From Parcubacteria group bacterium (GTDB taxonomy: Bacteria > Patescibacteriota > Minisyncoccia > Phycocordibacterales > UBA2135): 64,000 nucleotides of DNA. How positions within the stretch are numbered: the stretch's first letter is position 1; every line of letters starts with the position of its first letter. The notes beneath the pieces were generated by a model. That model worked only from the letters and a program-made list of their open reading frames with translations, ran no database searches and had not been told where the DNA came from. Below are positions 1,727-48,760 of this stretch, in pieces. The position numbers and the translations under genes are program-made. Location: the NCBI GenBank assembly GCA_016180525.1, contig JACPBB010000002.1:345980-409979 (forward strand), in the 5' to 3' direction.

Positions 1727-2127
1727 ATTATCCACCCCAGCACCAAAGCAAGCTTGGTGCGGGGCGAGAAGTGGTATTTTGAGCGCCTTGCCCGCTTAAA
1801 ACTCACGAGATGATTTTTAAGTGAGTGCCGCATTTACCCCCACACCTATCGTGCCGTTATTGTTAGTGATTTTACAAACATTGAAACGATTTTATATATA
1901 CTCATACTTGCCGCTGTTCCTTCCTATTTCAGAAGAACAATTAATCACAACGGCACAATAGGTGTAGGGGTTTATCCACAGGGACAGTTTTTATAAATCT
2001 GACGTATAATAAAAGTATAATTATTACTTGTTTTTTAAAAGCTAAATTTATTTTGTAAGAGAGAAGGGTTCACCCCAAAAGTAAATGGGGCACGTAAAAT
2101 TTTCTCTTACAGGATTCGTCAAACTAC

Positions 2128-5132: not shown

Positions 5133-7538
5133 ATGAATAGTAATTATAATTATCTAATTTTTATGACTGATACAGGAGCTCTCCCGCAGAAGAATTTTTT
5201 TTCTTTTTTAAAAAAAATAAAAAACGCATCCCTCGACGTTGTTTCAATGGGTATTGTATTTTGGGGCATTGTGCTTTTACCTCTTTTTTTCTTTCCCGTG
5301 CTTGGCTTTTCAATTGATACGAGTAAAATTTTATTTTTAATAGCATTCATTCTTCTTAGTTTTTTACTGTGGCTTTTTGCTCGGCTTAAAGAAGGGTCCA
5401 TTACCATTCCGCTTCATCCGACGCTTGCGGCCGCCGCAATTGTTGTTCTTATTTTTATTATCAGCGCTCTTTTTTCTCCCACACCGCAGAGTTCATTTTT
5501 TGGATTTACCTATGAAATAGGAACCGTAGTATTCATGACTGTTCTTTTTTTGTTATTCTTTCTTGTTTCACTCTTTTTTCAGTCGAGTCGCTCTGTTGAA
5601 CTTTTATATCAATCATTGTTAGTTGTATTTGGGATTTCTTTTCTTTTTTGGGTTCTCCGTCTTTTACTTGGCGTTGACTTTTTATCATTCGGTGGATTTT
5701 TCCCCGGAAAGGCGAGTACTATAATTGGAAAATGGAACGATTTTGCGGTGTTTGCGGGCTTTATAGCACTTCTCTCGCTCATTACGCTTGAAAAAGTCTC
5801 TTTGCACAAAAGAATTCGCGCGGCGCTTTACAGCGTGCTGTTTCTTTCTCTTTTTGTTCTCGCAATTGTGAACTTCTATCTTGTGTGGATTATTGTTGGT
5901 TTGTTTGCCCTCATTATTTTTGTATATAATTTTTCCTCCAATCGTTTTGCGAAGAACACGAAAGATAGTACTTTTTCTCAAAATGTTTCATATCCGTCAG
6001 GGATTGTTTTGGTTGTAGCGCTCTTGTTTGTTATTGCGGGCGGAACTATCGGCGGTTTTCTCAACGAAACACTGGGCATTACCCAAATTGAAGTGCGTCC
6101 GTCGTGGGCCTCAACGGGTATTATTCTTAAAGAGACTATAAAAGAACATCCGCTCCTCGGAAGTGGACCAAATAGATTTACCAATCAATGGTTTACATTT
6201 AAACCCGGAAGCATTAATAGTTCACCGTTTTGGAACACTGAATTTCGATCGGGTGTCGGGCTTTTACCGACCTTTGCGGTTACCACCGGGGTCCTTGGAG
6301 CTGTTTCATTGAGTATTTTCTTGTTTCTTTTCCTGTATCAAGGCGCGCGTTCCTTGTTCGCAACGACAATACATCGTTTGGAATATGTTGTTTTTTCATC
6401 TTTTGTTCTCGCGCTATATCTTTGGGTCATTGCGTTTTTCTATGTTCCGAACGTTGTCTTATTCACGCTTGCGTTTGCGATAACGGGCGTTTTCGTCGGG
6501 GCGTTGGTGGGAGCGGGGAAGATAAAACAATATACGTTTTCATACTTTGAAAATCCACGCGCGGGCTTTATTTCAGTGCTCGTTCTGTCTATTTTGTTAA
6601 TTGGAACTGTTACGATGGGGTACGCTGTTACAAAAAAAATTATTGCGCTCAAAAACTTTTATCAAAGCCGCACGGCTTTTACGGTGGGTGATCTAGAGAC
6701 TGCCGAAGGAAAAATTAAAAAAGCTATAAACCAGAATACTACAGATGTATATTATCGAGGGCTTGCTGAAATTAAAACTCGTCAGATTACAGCTTTGCTT
6801 TCAAGAAATGACGTATCTCCGGAAGATGCTCGGGCTCAATTTCAATCACTGCTCGGTGAAGCGATATTCGCGGGGCAGCAGGCGGTCCAGTTTGATAAGA
6901 CTCAATATGTAAACTGGCTCGCTCTTGCACGCGTATATGAATCTGTTGTGCCGCTTGTTACCGGAGCGTATGAAAGCGCTCGAGTTTCACTTGCCGAGTC
7001 ACTTTCACGCTATCCTCAAAGTCCGTTGCTTACCCTTGAACACGCTAGGCTTGAAATTGCAAACAGAAATATAAACGAAGCACGCCGATATATTGGAGAA
7101 GCTCTTCAAATGAAACCGGATTACGCAAACGCGATTTTCTTGCTTGCGCAAATTGAATTTTCTGAAGGTAATATTTCTGCGGCTATTCGTTCGGTTGAAG
7201 GAGCGACGCTTGCCGCGCCAAATGACGAAGGCCTTTTTTTCCAATTAGGACTTCTTAAATTTAATACACGAGATTACAAAGGGTCTGCGGAGGCTTTGGT
7301 TCGGGCGGTAGAGTTAAATCCCCAGTTTGCAAACGCAAAATATTTTCTTGGACTTTCCTTCTATAATATAAATCGTACAGCGGAGGCAATTGTTCAATTT
7401 GAAGGCATTGAGCTTGCAAATCCGGAAAATCAAGAGGTAAAACAAATTCTAGAGAATTTAAGAAACGGCAATGGTCCATTTGCAAATTTTAATGAGCCGG
7501 ATTTTTCTGAAAGGGACACTCTTCCGCTCAATGAATAG
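5133..7538 (+). CDS. large polytopic membrane protein (O-antigen-ligase/Wzy-like N-terminal region) with C-terminal TPR repeats
   Basis: 801 aa; about 12 predicted TM helices in the first 480 aa, then repeated 34-aa TPR-like units (AxxYxxLGxxYxxxxxxxxAxxxxxxALxLxP pattern). Confidence 0.6.
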   Translation: MNSNYNYLIFMTDTGALPQKNFFSFLKKIKNASLDVVSMGIVFWGIVLLPLFFFPVLGFSIDTSKILFLIAFILLSFLLWLFARLKEGSITIPLHPTLAAAAIVVLIFIISALFSPTPQSSFFGFTYEIGTVVFMTVLFLLFFLVSLFFQSSRSVELLYQSLLVVFGISFLFWVLRLLLGVDFLSFGGFFPGKASTIIGKWNDFAVFAGFIALLSLITLEKVSLHKRIRAALYSVLFLSLFVLAIVNFYLVWIIVGLFALIIFVYNFSSNRFAKNTKDSTFSQNVSYPSGIVLVVALLFVIAGGTIGGFLNETLGITQIEVRPSWASTGIILKETIKEHPLLGSGPNRFTNQWFTFKPGSINSSPFWNTEFRSGVGLLPTFAVTTGVLGAVSLSIFLFLFLYQGARSLFATTIHRLEYVVFSSFVLALYLWVIAFFYVPNVVLFTLAFAITGVFVGALVGAGKIKQYTFSYFENPRAGFISVLVLSILLIGTVTMGYAVTKKIIALKNFYQSRTAFTVGDLETAEGKIKKAINQNTTDVYYRGLAEIKTRQITALLSRNDVSPEDARAQFQSLLGEAIFAGQQAVQFDKTQYVNWLALARVYESVVPLVTGAYESARVSLAESLSRYPQSPLLTLEHARLEIANRNINEARRYIGEALQMKPDYANAIFLLAQIEFSEGNISAAIRSVEGATLAAPNDEGLFFQLGLLKFNTRDYKGSAEALVRAVELNPQFANAKYFLGLSFYNINRTAEAIVQFEGIELANPENQEVKQILENLRNGNGPFANFNEPDFSERDTLPLNE

Positions 7539-7555: not shown

Positions 7556-9241
7556 ATGATACAACGTATTTTAAAGACTTTAGAGAAGGAGATAAGCGGC
7601 CTCCATGAGGCCGCGTATCTATTGGGCGTGTTTGCTTTATTTGCAAAAGCTCTCGCTCTTTTTCGGGACAGGCTACTTGCGCACAATTTCGGGGCAAGTG
7701 AAACACTGGATATTTATTATGCTGCCTTTCGTATTCCTGATTTTATTTATATTTCTCTTGCTTCACTCGTCGCTTCCGCAGTGCTTATTCCATTCGTGGT
7801 TTCAAAATTAGAAACAGGCGAGGGGGCACGCCGTTTTTTCAATACCATTTTTACGGTATTTTTTATCGGCATTATTGTCGTCTGCAGTCTCGTGTTCGTG
7901 TTCATGCCGTTTTTATCTGATATTGTTGCTCCGGGCCTTAGCCCTGAAGCCCAAAACGAGCTCATTCTTCTTTCGCGTATCATGCTCTTCTCTCCAATAC
8001 TCCTGGGGCTCTCCGGGCTTTTTGCAAGTATTACGCAAGCTCTGCGGCGTTTTTTTGTCTATGCTTTGAGCCCCATTTTATATAACGCGGGTATTGTAAT
8101 TGGTATTATATTTTTTTATCCTCTGTGGGGTCTTTCGGGCCTCGCCTATGGTGTTGTTTTGGGCGCCGTGCTCCACGCGCTTATTCAAGTTCCTGTGCTT
8201 ATTCGCCAGGGGTTTCTTCCGCGGTTCTCTTTACCTGCACATTTTTTTTCAGAAATAAAAAACGTTTTTCTTCTTTCGCTTCCGCGAACCCTCACACTCT
8301 CAATACATCACCTAGTTCTTCTTGTATTTATTTCATTTGCCTCGCTTATGGGAGAGGGCGCAATTTCCATTTTTAACTTTTCTTTTAATCTTCAATCGGT
8401 ACCGCTCTCTATTATCGGAGTAAGCTATTCCGTTGCGGCATTTCCAACTCTTGCGCGCATGTTTTCAGGCGGCAATCATTCTGCGTTTGTCGCGCAAGTG
8501 TTTTCTTCTTTGCGGCATATTATATTTTGGTCTTTTCCTATTTTGGTTCTTTTTATTGTTTTGCGGGCACAAATCGTAAGAGTCATTCTCGGCACGGGAG
8601 AGTTTGGGTGGCCTGAAACACGTCTTACTGCCGCTGCGCTCGCACTTTTTTCAATTTCAGTTATTGCGCAGAGCGCCATTCTTCTTTTGGTTCGTGGATA
8701 TTATGCCGCGGGTAAAACGAAGGCGCCGCTCGTTATAAACGTCTCCTCATCGCTTCTTATTATCGGACTTGCTTTTCTGTTTATAAAATTATTTACTGTT
8801 TCTGAATTTTTCAAATATTTTATGGAGTCATTGTTTAGAATTTCGGATGTACCCGGCACTGCAATTATTATGCTTCCGCTTGCGTTTTCATTAGGAACAC
8901 TCCTCAATGTATTTATATTGTGGTATTTCTTTAAAAAAGATTTTAGCATTGAACAAACACCGCTTGGAGATACGGTGCGGCATAGTTTTTACGGCTCAAT
9001 CGCGATGGGGTTTGTCGCGTATCAATTTTTGGAAATATTTGACAATGTGTTTGACATAAACACATTTTGGGGAATATTTCTGCAAGGATTTTTCTCCGGC
9101 ATGTTAGGAGTTGTGGCGGGAATATTGTTACTTAAAATTCTCGGCAATAAGGAAATTGCTGAAGTAAGCGCGGCACTGCATCACAGATTTTGGAAAACAA
9201 AACCCGTCGCTCCGGATCAAGGAGACCTTGTGAGCCATTAG
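7556..9241 (+). CDS. murJ: lipid II flippase MurJ (MviN family)
   Basis: 561 aa, 14-TM profile; N-terminal region typical of MurJ (AxxLxxFRDRLLAxxFGASxxLDxYYAAFRIPDF). Confidence 0.8.
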   Translation: MIQRILKTLEKEISGLHEAAYLLGVFALFAKALALFRDRLLAHNFGASETLDIYYAAFRIPDFIYISLASLVASAVLIPFVVSKLETGEGARRFFNTIFTVFFIGIIVVCSLVFVFMPFLSDIVAPGLSPEAQNELILLSRIMLFSPILLGLSGLFASITQALRRFFVYALSPILYNAGIVIGIIFFYPLWGLSGLAYGVVLGAVLHALIQVPVLIRQGFLPRFSLPAHFFSEIKNVFLLSLPRTLTLSIHHLVLLVFISFASLMGEGAISIFNFSFNLQSVPLSIIGVSYSVAAFPTLARMFSGGNHSAFVAQVFSSLRHIIFWSFPILVLFIVLRAQIVRVILGTGEFGWPETRLTAAALALFSISVIAQSAILLLVRGYYAAGKTKAPLVINVSSSLLIIGLAFLFIKLFTVSEFFKYFMESLFRISDVPGTAIIMLPLAFSLGTLLNVFILWYFFKKDFSIEQTPLGDTVRHSFYGSIAMGFVAYQFLEIFDNVFDINTFWGIFLQGFFSGMLGVVAGILLLKILGNKEIAEVSAALHHRFWKTKPVAPDQGDLVSH

Positions 9242-9353
9242 TCCTGGTGTTTTTATGTAGCGTTTTCGATAGATATTTGGAAAACCTTTATTTTAAGGTA
9301 TTGTTTAGAAGATACATATGGATAATATTAGAAATTTTTCTATTATCGCGCAT

Positions 9354-9388
9354 CCCAGTACCATGACGCTCCGCGTCAGCTACGGGAC
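9354..9388. repeat. left 35-bp inverted repeat bracketing lepA
   Basis: cccagtaccatgacgctccgcgtcagctacgggac; its reverse complement recurs at 11253..11287 with one mismatch. Confidence 0.8.
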
Positions 9389-9393
9389 AGGCA

Positions 9394-11193
9394 TTGACCA
9401 CATTCCTTATGAATAATATTCGCAACTTCAGTATTATTGCTCACATTGATCATGGAAAATCTACCTTAGCGGATAGGATGCTTGAAATGACGGGTACGAT
9501 TGAAAAAAGAAAAATGAAAGAGCAGGTGCTTGATTCAATGGAGCTTGAGCGCGAACGCGGCATTACTATCAAACTTGCTCCTGTGAGAATGTCCTACGAT
9601 CTAAATGCTAAACGCTATACCCTTAATTTAATTGATACCCCAGGGCATATAGATTTTTCATATGAAGTTTCTCGTGCCCTAAAGGCCGTTGATGGAGCGG
9701 TATTGCTTGTTGATGCTACTCAAGGGGTACAAGCGCAGACGCTCTCTACCCTTGATACCGCACGGAACATGGGTCTTGTCATTATTCCTGTTGTTTCAAA
9801 AATAGATTCTTCGCTCGCAAAAATACCCGAAGTAAAAAAAGAATTAGCGACATTGCTTAAGTGTCCTATTGAGTCTGTACTCGCCGTATCTGGAAAAACG
9901 GGTGAAGGAGTGCATGAACTGTTAAAAGCAATTATTGAACGGGTGCCCTCTCCGAAGAGTGAAGAACAAGCGGGGCTTCAGGGACTTGTATTTGATTTTA
10001 GTTACTCAAATCATCGCGGGATTATTGTGTATGTGCGAGTATTTAATGGAGCCATAAAAAAAGGAGACACGTTACTTTTTAAAGTTACCAATGAAAAATT
10101 CACTGTTCTTGAAACGGGAGTTTTTATTCCAGAGGAAAAATCAGTTGAAACCCTTTCTGCGGGAGAGACCGGCTACATTGTAACGGGAATAAAAAAAATG
10201 GATAAAGCAGTCGTGGGGGATACAATTGTTGAGTTTAAAAATCCGCTACCTGCGCTTCCGGGCTACGAGGATCCACCACCCGTTGTCTGGGCATCCGTAT
10301 ATCCTCAAAGCCAAGATGACTTTGACTTGTTAAAAAATTCTTTATTTCGTCTTAAGCTTTCAGATTCAGCCCTTTCATTTTCCGAAGAACAGTCAGGTTC
10401 GCTTGGCAGGGGATTTCGGTGTGGTTTTTTGGGGATGCTTCATTTGGAGATTGTTGTGGAGCGGCTTAAGCGAGAATTTAACGTGTCGCTTATTGTTACG
10501 GCTCCGTCTATCGTCTATGAGATTGAGCGGATAGATGGGGGGAGAGAGAAAATTTATTCCGCGTCGCAACTCCCCGAAGAGCATACTTTTACGAAAATTT
10601 ATGAGCCATGGGCGCGTCTTACCATAATTACACCGCAAAACTATGTCGGGGATATTGTTCAGATTTTACACAAACACGAAGGAGTTATGGGAGAAACCCA
10701 CACGTTTGGAGACAGTCGTGTGTCATTTGAGGTGGAGATGCCCCTGCGGGAGCTTATGCGAAATTTTTTTGATGAGCTCAAGCGAGTTTCTTCCGGCTTT
10801 GCGTCGTTTTCATACAAGATTGCTGACGTTAGGGGGGCGGATATTGTGAAACTTGAAATGCTTGTTGCCGAGGAGATGCAGCCCGCGTTTTCCACTATTG
10901 TGCCACGTGCTCGGGCGCAGGAAGACGCAAAAAAACTCACAGATCGGCTTTATACTCTTTTGCCAAGGCAGTTATTTCCGATTAAAATTCAGGCAAAAGG
11001 AATGGGGAGAATTCTGTCGTCAAAAACACTTCCGGCTCTTAAAAAAGATGTGACCGGCTATTTATACGGAGGAGATATTACAAGAAAGCGCAAATTGTGG
11101 GAAAAACAGAAAAAAGGCAAGAAAAAACTACAAGCGCGCGGGACGGTGGAGATACCGCACGATGTCTTTTTGAAGATGGTAAAACGGGAGTAA
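9394..11193 (+). CDS. lepA: translation elongation factor 4 (LepA)
   Basis: GTP-binding motifs AHIDHGKST and DTPGHIDF; LepA-specific C-terminal domain; ORF-track start is TTG at 9394, more likely ATG at 9409 (MNNIRNFSIIAHIDHGKST). Confidence 0.85.
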   Translation: MTTFLMNNIRNFSIIAHIDHGKSTLADRMLEMTGTIEKRKMKEQVLDSMELERERGITIKLAPVRMSYDLNAKRYTLNLIDTPGHIDFSYEVSRALKAVDGAVLLVDATQGVQAQTLSTLDTARNMGLVIIPVVSKIDSSLAKIPEVKKELATLLKCPIESVLAVSGKTGEGVHELLKAIIERVPSPKSEEQAGLQGLVFDFSYSNHRGIIVYVRVFNGAIKKGDTLLFKVTNEKFTVLETGVFIPEEKSVETLSAGETGYIVTGIKKMDKAVVGDTIVEFKNPLPALPGYEDPPPVVWASVYPQSQDDFDLLKNSLFRLKLSDSALSFSEEQSGSLGRGFRCGFLGMLHLEIVVERLKREFNVSLIVTAPSIVYEIERIDGGREKIYSASQLPEEHTFTKIYEPWARLTIITPQNYVGDIVQILHKHEGVMGETHTFGDSRVSFEVEMPLRELMRNFFDELKRVSSGFASFSYKIADVRGADIVKLEMLVAEEMQPAFSTIVPRARAQEDAKKLTDRLYTLLPRQLFPIKIQAKGMGRILSSKTLPALKKDVTGYLYGGDITRKRKLWEKQKKGKKKLQARGTVEIPHDVFLKMVKRE

Positions 11194-11252
11194 GAAAATA
11201 CGAGAATGTTTTGCCATGTTCTTTATACTACTAACCCCAAACACCACATCTC

Positions 11253-11287
11253 GTCCCGTAGCTGACGTGGAGCGTCATGGTACTGGG
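11253..11287. repeat. right 35-bp inverted repeat bracketing lepA
   Basis: gtcccgtagctgacgtggagcgtcatggtactggg is the reverse complement of 9354..9388 with one mismatch. Confidence 0.8.
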
Positions 11288-11649
11288 ATGGTAAAACGAG
11301 ATAACTAGGAGTTGAATTTTAGTAGCTAGTGGATTAGAAAATAGGGGTGTAAAGGAAAAGCATACTGATAATAACAAGTATTCCAAGTCCTATCCATACA
11401 TTTCGCACCATTTTTCTATTCTTTTTTCCGAGAAACATGCCAAAAATTGAGGAGCGGAGCGACTGCAATTTTTGAGCACCCCGCACCTATTTTATTAAGA
11501 AATTATTTCTATAATATATAATATTACTACGAAAAAATATTTTTGCAAAGCGCGGGGCCGAATAGGCCAACCCTCATTACGCGAAGCGCTTTGCCACAAA
11601 ATACCTGCAAAATAGGTGCAGGGTATGGTTTTGCGATATAATATTACTA

Positions 11650-16819: not shown

Positions 16820-16844
16820 AAATGAAATAAACACGCCTGGGTAG
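16820..16844 (+). repeat. 25-bp direct repeat, copy 1 (includes the first 10 nt of a tRNA-Phe 5' end)
   Basis: aaatgaaataaacacgcctgggtag is identical to 17154..17178. Confidence 0.75.
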
Positions 16845-16889
16845 CCCCGACGCGCGAAGCGGTCGGGGTCCCGACCGAAGCGTCGGGAC
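16845..16889. repeat. G+C-rich nested palindromic repeat element (REP-like family copy)
   Basis: ccccgacgcgcgaagcggtcggggtcccgaccgaagcgtcgggac; shared architecture CCGACGC...GGTCGG(G/A)GTCCCGAC...GCGTCGGG with four other copies. Confidence 0.65.
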
Positions 16890-16906
16890 TCAGCCTAAGA
16901 GTATAC

Positions 16907-17164
16907 ATGGCTTACGTCTATATTTTACAAAACGAGAACGGAAGATATTATGTAGGTAGTACCAGTAATTTAGAAAAACGTATGCAACACCACAGAGGTG
17001 GCTATACTCCGTCAACGAGGAGACTGAAAGCGTTTCAGCTAGTTTTTTCTCAAAAATACGACAGCCTTTTTGAGGCACGAGATATTGAACGAAGATTAAA
17101 AAAGTTAAAGCGTCATGATTATCTTCAAAAAATTATTCGCGATGGTAAAATACAAATGAAATAA
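16907..17164 (+). CDS. GIY-YIG nuclease domain protein (free-standing, homing-endonuclease-like)
   Basis: 85 aa; YVYILQNENGRYYVGSTSNLEKRMQHH matches the GIY-x10-YVG-x-T...R...H GIY-YIG catalytic core. Confidence 0.75.
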   Translation: MAYVYILQNENGRYYVGSTSNLEKRMQHHRGGYTPSTRRLKAFQLVFSQKYDSLFEARDIERRLKKLKRHDYLQKIIRDGKIQMK

Positions 17165-19495: not shown

Positions 19496-19521
19496 GTGTT
19501 TGGGGTCCATTTGAATTGAAT

Positions 19522-19579
19522 CCCGACGCTCCGCTTGTGAGCGGGGGTCGGGACCCCGACCGGCTTTGCGCGTCGGGGC
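19522..19579. repeat. G+C-rich nested palindromic repeat element (REP-like family copy, inverted relative to the 16845 copy)
   Basis: its reverse complement gccccgacgcgcaaagccggtcggggtcccgacc...gcgtcggga aligns with 16845..16889. Confidence 0.65.
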
Positions 19580-19695
19580 TACGGGGGCGGCTACGTACAT
19601 AAGAATATATATGAAATAGGCACAAATGTAAAACCCAGCTCCGCCTATTGGTGGGGCTGGGTAAATGAGTCACTAAATTGTTATAATGAAGTGAC

Positions 19696-45051: not shown

Positions 45052-45086
45052 TGCAATCTTACCAGGCTCTTTTGTCATAAAAACAA

Positions 45087-45135
45087 CCCCCTCACTCTCT
45101 AAGAGTGAGGGGGTGTTTTGCCTGATTTTTTTTCT
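45087..45135. terminator. bidirectional palindromic terminator (copy A)
   Basis: ccccctcactct-cta-agagtgaggggg with A-run before and T-run after; near-identical palindrome at 48724..48750. Confidence 0.65.
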
Positions 45136-48644: not shown

Positions 48645-48723
48645 ATATGAACAACCCCTTCCGTTATTTTTCCTTTTTACAGGGTAATTCTTTTAATGTA
48701 TATAGTCAAGTTTTTACTAAAAC

Positions 48724-48760
48724 ACCCCCTCACTCTTTAAGAGTGAGGGGGTGTTTTGAA
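48724..48760. terminator. bidirectional palindromic terminator (copy B), downstream of ftsZ
   Basis: ccccctcactct-tta-agagtgaggggg plus T-run. Confidence 0.65.

Follow-up and report, generated by a model that had tools for sequence, protein, structure and literature searches.

Two opposed copies of a widespread hairpin element flank the lepA gene of a Parcubacteria group bacterium

How does a complete gene come to lie between two inverted repeats, with remains of its own two ends left outside them? This question is raised by the lepA gene (elongation factor 4) in a 64-kb stretch of DNA, here called the window, from a Parcubacteria group bacterium (GenBank assembly GCA_016180525.1, contig JACPBB010000002.1, positions 345,980 to 409,979). 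A preliminary description of this stretch considered a mobile cassette, an invertible segment, or an assembly chimera of two strains. Here, we show that the two repeat arms are copies of a structured hairpin element of about 39 nt, named H in the following, which is widespread in genomes of the Parcubacteria type (candidate phyla radiation, CPR) and apparently undescribed. With moderate confidence, we regard the inverted repeat around lepA as two opposed junctions of the H family, one at each gene end and each consisting of a gene stub, H, and the intact gene.

The left arm (9354..9388) is the reverse complement of the right arm (11253..11287) at 34 of 35 positions, the sole mismatch being G versus A at 9373. 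This repeat around a complete lepA had been reported before and was confirmed; it lengthens to 38 nt with one mismatch (9351-9388 and 11253-11290), as the outer CAT and ATG are complementary too. No further arm copy with up to three mismatches is present in the 64-kb window, and none was found in 100 shuffles. Between the arms, the intact lepA of 594 aa is encoded on the forward strand (9409..11193, ATG at 9409) with all LepA domains present. Its product has an identical counterpart, annotated as elongation factor 4, in a Parcubacteria-group metagenome-assembled genome (MAG), and this exact protein is recorded only at this locus, in the six Logan contigs retrieved and in one NCBI MAG contig. 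Four Logan contigs of 4.8-7.8 kb (L003-L006; comparison loci carry the letter L throughout), which are independent k = 31 assemblies of other runs from the same project, cross both junctions and show the order TPR, MurJ, stub, arm, lepA, arm, stub, DivIC with identical arms. A scan for promoters and terminators around lepA gave counts no higher than in shuffled sequence. The public gene call P0002 (599 aa; window 9394-11193) starts at a TTG inside the left junction (MTTFLMNNI...), while the conserved start is the ATG at 9409.

A hairpin downstream of lepA in L011 has the same flanks as the window arms and another stem (CCCAGTACCAT-CCCGCC-TAC-GGGCGGG-AGCTACGGG). Scanning metagenomes with the pattern CCCAGTACCAT-N11-19-AGCTACGGG, i.e. 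with fixed flanks and a free centre, yielded 119 stretches from groundwater, sediment, and other metagenomes, with about 10 expected by chance according to a rough estimate; the exact core of the window arms, ACCATGACGCNNNRCGTCAGCTAYGG, had no match in metagenomes. The consensus consists of YCCCAGTACCAT, a covarying stem, and AGCTACGGGR. It forms a 35-nt hairpin with an outer helix YCCC(A)GUA / UACGGGR, an internal loop CCA / GC, an inner 6-bp stem, and a 3-nt loop. In nearly all cases, the centre consists of 5 bp of stem plus 3 nt of loop, with variable sequence. Among 47 distinct 42-nt sequences, the structure.((((.(((...((((((...))))))..)))))))...... is formed in 95.4% of the alignment cells compared to about 40% with slid 3' partners; 85 cells are changed on both sides, i.e. 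compensatory, and five of the six inner-stem pairs covary. The outermost pair covaries as well (C-G in 34 sequences, U-A in 8), and since the window arms represent the U-A variant, T at 9353 and A at 11288 belong to H. Both arms fit the family definition and were matched by a covariance model (R1) over all 42 positions. Across the window, R1 found three copies, namely both arms and a diverged third one, and across 84 lepA loci it matched only in L008 and L011.

At E <= 5, H in the window region is covered by no Rfam 15 family, group I and II introns included, and at gathering thresholds only tRNA and rRNA matches were obtained in 18 H loci. Literature searches by motif strings and keywords gave no description of H. 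One centre variant (CCGCCTTTGGCGG) is present at several unrelated sites (L102, L138, L150, L169), and several of the contigs come from one metagenome; such shared variants suggest proliferation of H within a genome. The genes near H are housekeeping genes, with translational GTPases at 10 loci and YchF/Obg at 9 loci. In 7 loci, a long open reading frame (ORF) near H resembles an aminoacyl-tRNA synthetase by its look, and a LAGLIDADG-like ORF is found near H in 3 loci. Viral contigs contributed one match only. The hairpin of the repeat had also been likened to motifs in the G+C-rich palindromes elsewhere in the window; this kinship did not hold, as the palindromes at 16.8 and 19.5 kb reach no more than 9 bits (E = 5) when scored with the model of H.

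On the left side, the lepA stub runs on the forward strand from its start codon to the first two bases of His12 (9318..9352, MDNIRNFSIIA-H). Including the following base (9318..9353), it reads ATGGATAATATTAGAAATTTTTCTATTATCGCGCAT and encodes MDNIRNFSIIAH; 10 of 36 nt differ from the internal lepA start, and nearly all differences are synonymous. Nine mostly synonymous differences had been counted before, of which the bias stands and the number does not. Over 45 nt, 9 of the 10 differing codons are synonymous. The left H copy (9353..9391, forward strand, 39 nt; R1 62.9 bits, E = 1e-12) comprises the 35-nt hairpin T-CCCAGTACCAT-GACGC-TCC-GCGTC-AGCTACGGG-A and a CAGG tail, which assigns it to tail class 1 (see below), and it splits the His12 codon of the stub between CA and C. 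Past H, the stub continues with C + ATTGACCAC (9392..9401, forward strand), i.e. the end of His12 and Ile13-Asp14-His15, with 8 of 9 nt agreeing with the intact copy at an offset of 4 nt after the hairpin; this continuation is identical to the corresponding sequence of the relative L007. As the stub frame resumes after 39 inserted nt (13 codons) in ATTGACCAC (9393-9401, LepA codons 13-15), the left arm is an insertion within a partial lepA copy and not its end. The stub does lie outside the left repeat as first described; it does not end there. A 7-nt filler, ATTCCTT (9402..9408), separates the partial copy from the intact start codon; the analogue in L161 is the 7-nt AACCAAT. Stub, H in frame (PSTMTLRVSYGTG), IDH, and IPYE together form a 32-codon ORF (9318..9416, forward strand) with its stop 5-7 nt past the lepA ATG. 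The typA stub ORF in L161 is laid out in the same manner, and the arrangement might possibly allow translational coupling of the stub ORF to lepA.

On the right side, a spacer or 3'-untranslated region (UTR) of about 60 nt (11194..11253) leads from the lepA stop to the hairpin, and its hairpin-side end is a class 2 tail (reverse complement CGAGATGTGGTG...) resembling the tails of L008 and L010 and class 2 tails elsewhere. The right H copy (11254..11288, reverse strand; R1 54.3 bits, E = 1e-10) is inverted relative to the left one, and the single mismatch (34 of 35 identical) disrupts one stem pair. It is followed by the 3' stub (A)TGGTAAAACGAGATAACTAG (11289..11308, forward strand), encoding MVKRDN-stop. 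The segment ATGGTAAAACGAGATAACTAG (11288..11308) matches the internal lepA end at 14 of 15 nt, in agreement with the earlier view that it is a diverged copy of this gene end. Further downstream, a conserved small membrane ORF of 34 aa (11334..11438, reverse strand; MFLGKKNRK...LFLYTPIF) is convergent with lepA in most relatives, which fixes the position of the ancestral lepA end. The order MurJ(+), lepA(+), 34-aa ORF(-), DivIC(+) is common to about 80 Parcubacteria/Paceibacteria lepA loci, and the synteny of lepA(+) and the small ORF(-) is kept in about 30 relatives. The 3' stub ends 25 nt short of the stop of the convergent small ORF, in the manner of lepA in other genomes, and by eye the leader in front of the 5' stub appears homologous to the lepA leaders of L007, L009, and L010. 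Because of this distance and resemblance, the two stubs sit at the ancestral start and end of lepA and are true lepA remnants, as had been proposed. A classical target-site duplication is lacking, also as proposed, since the left and right flanks differ (5' versus 3' stub).

Read along the H strand, one rule applies to both window junctions and to many other genes: a partial gene copy reaching from the gene boundary to the insertion site is followed by H, a short spacer, and the intact gene starting at the same end. A significant duplication of the upstream flank, anchored at H and located 14-180 nt downstream, was found in at least 25 of 108 non-redundant copies, and the true share of H copies with stubs is probably higher, since short stubs escape detection. 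According to Pfam or Rfam, 5' stubs beginning at the start codon derive from lepA (L133/L176, stub MKNIRNFSIIAH), typA/bipA (L158/L161), tsaD (..ETSCD), uvrB (..PAGD), rplS, and transketolase genes, and 3' stubs with H antisense to the gene derive from EF-G, SMC, and rpsI genes. Stubs of tRNA genes are 3' halves that begin in the anticodon loop. Insertions of the left-arm kind were also found in typA (L158/L161) and tRNA-Tyr (L173). The boundary of the duplication can be sharp: in L133, the two copies are 92% identical from the ATG on, and the upstream sequences are unrelated. In L154 (865-1050), two tandem units of EF-G 3' stub, H, and spacer precede the intact EF-G end, which looks like repeated events at one site. 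Besides, H (39 nt, 13 codons) is located in frame inside intact full-length YchF (L093/L100/L132) and UvrC (L096) genes as a 13-aa insert, e.g. TPVPSAEGGATGQ; five of the six H reading frames are open.

Comparison of the lepA locus with related genomes, as suggested in the preliminary description, revealed the two junction types separately. Lone 5' junctions without a second H are present in L133, L176 (both lepA), and L161, and L010 has a homologous 3' UTR with a degenerate hairpin and no 5' junction. 5' and 3' junctions occur independently of each other in other genomes. Among 80 species-representative lepA loci, no second N-terminal lepA stub was detected and H was near lepA only in L011; about 120 H loci contained no other unit of two inverted H copies around a gene of the window kind.

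The tails following the hairpin fall into two classes. Class 1 tails read CAGG or CAAG; directly behind them, the target sequence is taken up again for 6-25 nt, mostly 8-12, before a short filler and the intact copy. The resumed sequence comprises 9 nt in the window, 10 in L158, 8 in L194, 8 in L187, 12 in L114, 6 in L205, and 25 in L173; because of this immediate resumption, class 1 H is a 39-nt insertion at A|C within the partial copy. In class 2, the stub ends exactly at H, and the tail GCGAGAAGTGGT is followed by A+T-rich sequence. The left arm of the window belongs to class 1 and the right arm to class 2, while both arms of L008 are class 2 and share 19 further nt. A pseudoknot between class 2 tail and internal loop was considered and discarded, as the pairing is not conserved across copies.

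Nine stub/gene pairs together contain 33 synonymous and 9 non-synonymous codon differences, compared to 18% synonymous differences expected from random single changes (binomial p ~1e-17). Consequently, stub and working gene end must both have been under selection at the protein level for most of their divergence, and neutral drift of a stub from a fresh duplicate would not fit. In agreement with the earlier assumption, this strong bias indicates that the stubs are ends of a different functional allele. Either the working end is of outside origin (carried by the element or recombined in), or another allele later overwrote the gene copy. Young junctions are nearly identical, with 49 of 52 matching nt in L173 and 3 of 36 differing positions in L133. 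The tRNA stub in L185 differs from the intact tRNA in the acceptor and anticodon stems and has the same intervening T arm, so that it appears to originate from a different tRNA allele.

A second locus with the window's parts was found in L008 (GCA_964556765.1), whose LepA is 81% identical. Its arms of 62 nt are 95% identical and have the core TACCATGACGC-GAG-GCGTCAGCTAYGGGAC; the 5' stub is MTANNIQNFSVVAHLDH, and the 3' stub TGGTTAAACGCGAGTAG shares 17 identical nt with the internal end of the gene. There, lepA is located on the strand opposite to both stubs, MurJ, and DivIC, so that the 3' stub adjoins the 5' end of lepA and the 5' stub its 3' end. The segment in L008 would most simply have been inverted by recombination between the arms. 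The arrangement in L008 departs from the adjacency rule in just the way expected of a flip; the window-like state is therefore primary and that of L008 derived. The earlier idea of an invertible segment is supported on the evolutionary scale, as L008 shows the orientation opposite to the window. All junction-crossing assemblies of the window population (L003-L006 and the window) show one orientation. In L007, LepA is 85% identical, and half an arm follows directly after the lepA stop. Pairwise identities of TPR, MurJ, LepA, and DivIC all give ((window, L007), L008). As the four genes are congruent, lepA was inherited vertically with its flanks, and horizontal transfer of lepA was rejected.

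We consider it fairly probable that the lepA inverted repeat arose from two H junctions and not as a unit. H is sense at the lepA start and antisense at the lepA end, and therefore the two copies face each other as an inverted repeat with the old ends outside. As each junction type occurs alone elsewhere, two separate events are more economical than one cassette. Each junction would have been created by an insertion that supplied, or coincided with, a new copy replacing the displaced end of the gene, a process that might be called a self-healing insertion-duplication. The stub would then be the end of the resident allele, and the working end would be of other origin or history. An enzyme acting in trans would be involved, the moving form may be DNA or RNA, and the process may be one-step or duplication-first. 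Two inverted H copies 1.9 kb apart would subsequently provide a recombination substrate, by which the segment with the intact lepA could have been flipped in L008. Staggered-break inversion and fold-back replication at the 3' hairpin were also considered and rejected, as neither yields the order stub, H, gene at both ends.

Several observations weigh against this explanation. Class 1 junctions could equally well stem from one step or from two, with a duplication followed by insertion of H into the spare copy. No recurrent recombinase, transposase, or reverse transcriptase was found near H in about 120 loci, and no recombinase domain was detected with Pfam in five L008 ORFs around lepA or in nine window ORFs scanned. 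Mobility of H is deduced only from its distribution and its sample-specific variants, and the L008 orientation is known from a single assembly. Stubs are lacking in L007, which is the closest relative judged by the flanking genes, and H sits after His12 in the 5' stub of the window and after the next His in L008, 9 nt apart; the junctions would therefore have been gained twice or lost once. The near-identical arms within each genome would moreover need gene conversion or local copying.

Beyond this locus, H could be the signature of undescribed miniature mobile elements of the CPR, which enter the first or last few dozen nt of essential conserved genes and spare the host by bringing or generating a replacement gene end, and pairs of which make essential genes invertible. 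We put this forward tentatively, as the less probable part of the interpretation. The conserved targets in question would be translational GTPases, tsaD, uvrB, ribosomal protein genes, and tRNAs.

A different explanation would be a single mobilisable cassette with H as terminal inverted repeats, which replaced the body of the resident lepA and left its first 12-15 and last 6 codons behind. The inverted repeats exactly at both boundaries and the origin of the stubs from a different allele would agree with such a replacement, as would the outer (5') H boundaries, which point outward like transposon ends, and the two public contigs that end exactly there. A cassette would be expected neither to lack a target-site duplication nor to carry a LepA whose relationships match those of MurJ, TPR, and DivIC. 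Its supposed terminal repeats are found as single copies at the same kind of stub junction in numerous genes, among them lepA (L133/L176), and L010 has the 3' junction alone. In the window, one arm has a class 1 and the other a class 2 inner tail, the left arm is located within the stub and not at its end, and no second unit of this kind was seen in about 120 H loci. The mobile cassette named as one possible reading in the preliminary description is therefore unlikely.

The orientations in the window and L008 could also reflect a programmed switch, in which a site-specific recombinase flips lepA between the H sites and thereby toggles its expression or promoter context. Both orientations exist among related species, each arm has an internal dyad symmetry like a recombinase site, and the flipped lepA of L008 is co-directional with the genes on both sides. 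On the other hand, L003-L006 and the window show one orientation only, neither genome has a recombinase gene among the ORFs scanned, and lepA is complete in both orientations. In addition, H is mostly single, so that inversion is not the purpose of the family. Altogether, programmed switching of lepA seems quite improbable.

H might instead be a functional RNA or DNA structure kept by selection, for example an mRNA-stabilising or processing hairpin or a bidirectional terminator, with 5' and 3' copies perhaps pairing across the lepA mRNA and the stubs as incidental duplications. Strong covariation together with triloops, the presence of H in 5'- and 3'-untranslated positions of intact genes, and a hairpin at the 3' end of lepA in several relatives are consistent with such a role. 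A role in the transcript is difficult to reconcile with the orientation of H, which is opposite at 5' and 3' gene ends, and with its location in frame inside YchF and UvrC and antisense inside tRNA copies. There is no U-tract right after the hairpin, and no terminator was called at either arm. One centre variant at several unrelated sites, in several cases of one metagenome, further suggests proliferation. We consider selection for a structure of this kind improbable as the cause of the arrangement.

Finally, a chimera of two strains or a mis-join at the repeat is highly improbable: mis-assembly is a classic consequence of inverted repeats and of mixed strains, and two short public contigs break at the arms, but four independent k = 31 assemblies cross both junctions identically, the same architecture is present with diverged sequence in another species (L008), and dozens of contigs that are unrelated and stem from several projects contain junctions of an analogous kind. 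The two short contigs (L001 and L002, from two runs) terminate precisely at the outermost arm nucleotides (9353, 11288), and a Nextera mosaic-end adapter is joined without a gap to 9353 in L002. These ends may have the dull explanation that the foot of the hairpin is a tagmentation hot spot, real DNA ends being the alternative. Collapse of the arms during k-mer assembly was rejected as cause of the contig breaks, as the single mismatch leaves every 31-mer unique. A synthetic adapter or engineered cassette, raised by the Nextera adapter, was likewise rejected, since the arms are members of a natural family, are not identical to each other (one base of difference), and recur in conserved but altered form in another species.

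With respect to known systems, Rickettsia palindromic elements (RPEs) are short palindromic repeats in the small genomes of host-dependent bacteria, where they lie in frame within coding genes (PMC10969869). Similarly, H is a short palindrome that appears to proliferate and is found in frame in intact genes, i.e. in the YchF and UvrC copies of the family and not in those of the window itself, and neither element has an associated transposase. RPEs comprise about 100-150 bp with a conserved peptide, compared to 39 nt for H, and by eye no obvious sequence similarity between the two was seen. We know of no association of RPEs with truncated duplicates of host gene ends. Repetitive extragenic palindromic (REP) sequences and their REPIN doublets, which are linked to RAYT proteins of the Y1 HUH type, resemble H as imperfect palindromes of 20-40 nt with conserved feet and a variable stem, with genome- or sample-specific variants, a location at gene ends, and inverted pairs. 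Duplications and inversions with REPs at their join-points are documented. REPs also have a conserved tetranucleotide, and the bottom strand of H carries GTAG beside the stem. However, REPs are extragenic, whereas H is located within stubs, coding frames, and tRNA copies, and a REPIN is a close doublet, whereas the window pair is 1.9 kb apart around a gene. In abundance, H reaches 3 copies in the 64 kb of the window and 119 metagenome stretches.

Islands and phages targeting tRNA genes, as well as e14 in icd, restore the gene end that they interrupt. Likewise, SXT of the SXT/R391 elements integrates in the 5' end of prfC and restores the interrupted gene end (PMC2791158). The H junctions share with such integrative elements the arrangement of intact gene, element, and leftover partial copy from the crossover point to the gene boundary, the highly conserved targets including the 5' end of a translational GTPase gene, tRNA stubs that begin in the anticodon loop, and tandem arrays (L154). 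In contrast to them, only 50-130 nt lie between stub and gene and encode nothing, no integrase was found around the L008 lepA or in about 120 H loci, and class 1 stubs continue for 6-25 nt past H. By analogy, end-restoring integrative elements appear closest in architecture, and REPs and RPEs closest in size and habit. [quoted passage not shown] Invertons are comparable as segments between inverted repeats with both orientations among related genomes, but at lepA the flipped segment is a whole essential-type gene instead of a promoter or alternative gene end, an adjacent invertase is lacking, and the assemblies of the window population show a single orientation.

If the self-healing insertion-duplication is true, it would be a third solution, beside introns and inteins, for parasitising conserved genes, and one without splicing. 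If the stub rule holds, duplicated ends at many core genes are marked by a tiny CPR repeat, which is probably also their cause. For annotation, stubs and in-frame 13-codon inserts are liable to be mis-called as starts, extensions, or pseudogenes, as with P0002. In streamlined genomes, inverted H copies can flip single essential genes, as with lepA. The H pattern and covariance model could furthermore be used to search for the enzyme by phylogenetic profiling.

The third H copy of the window (1734..1770, forward strand; R1 20.2 bits, E = 0.014) is diverged, reading ACCCCAGCACCA...TGCGGGGCGAGAAGTGGTATTTT with the class 2 tail GCGAGAAGTGGTATTTT. It is intergenic with no obvious stub, follows a hairpin after the ORF 1122-1688, and shows a compensatory change from U-A to C-G in the outer helix.

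The lepA loci of relatives showed some further features. In L007, the small ORF between lepA and divIC (7984-8210) is inverted compared to about 30 other genomes. Between murJ and lepA, L008 has an ORF of about 203 aa (5177-5788) with two KA(K/R)KLGL repeats and no Pfam match, which is absent from this position in the window; L010 has an ORF of equal size there (5342-5950). In L009 (6001-8262) and L012 (LepA 73% identical), an in-frame PD-(D/E)XK nuclease domain (PF13366) of about 150 aa is located in the GTPase domain of LepA, and the ORF of 753 aa is open.

Other repeats of the window are distinct observations. The G+C-rich palindromes (GTCCCGACCGAAGCGTCGGGAC and relatives) at 16834-16892, 19517-19589, ~4852, and ~44258 adjoin the gene of an 85-aa GIY-YIG protein (16907-17164) and tRNA genes, and the same repeat sequence is present in the unrelated metagenome contig L173 at the join of a tandem tRNA-Tyr duplication. 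Two tRNA genes with CGA anticodon (41.8 and 42.6 kb) were considered as a duplication and proved to be different genes. At 45081-45119 and 48719-48757, 3.6 kb apart, the window contains two near-identical perfect palindromes of 39 nt (AAAACACCCCCTCACTCT.TAAGAGTGAGGGGGTGTTTT), which are terminator-like.

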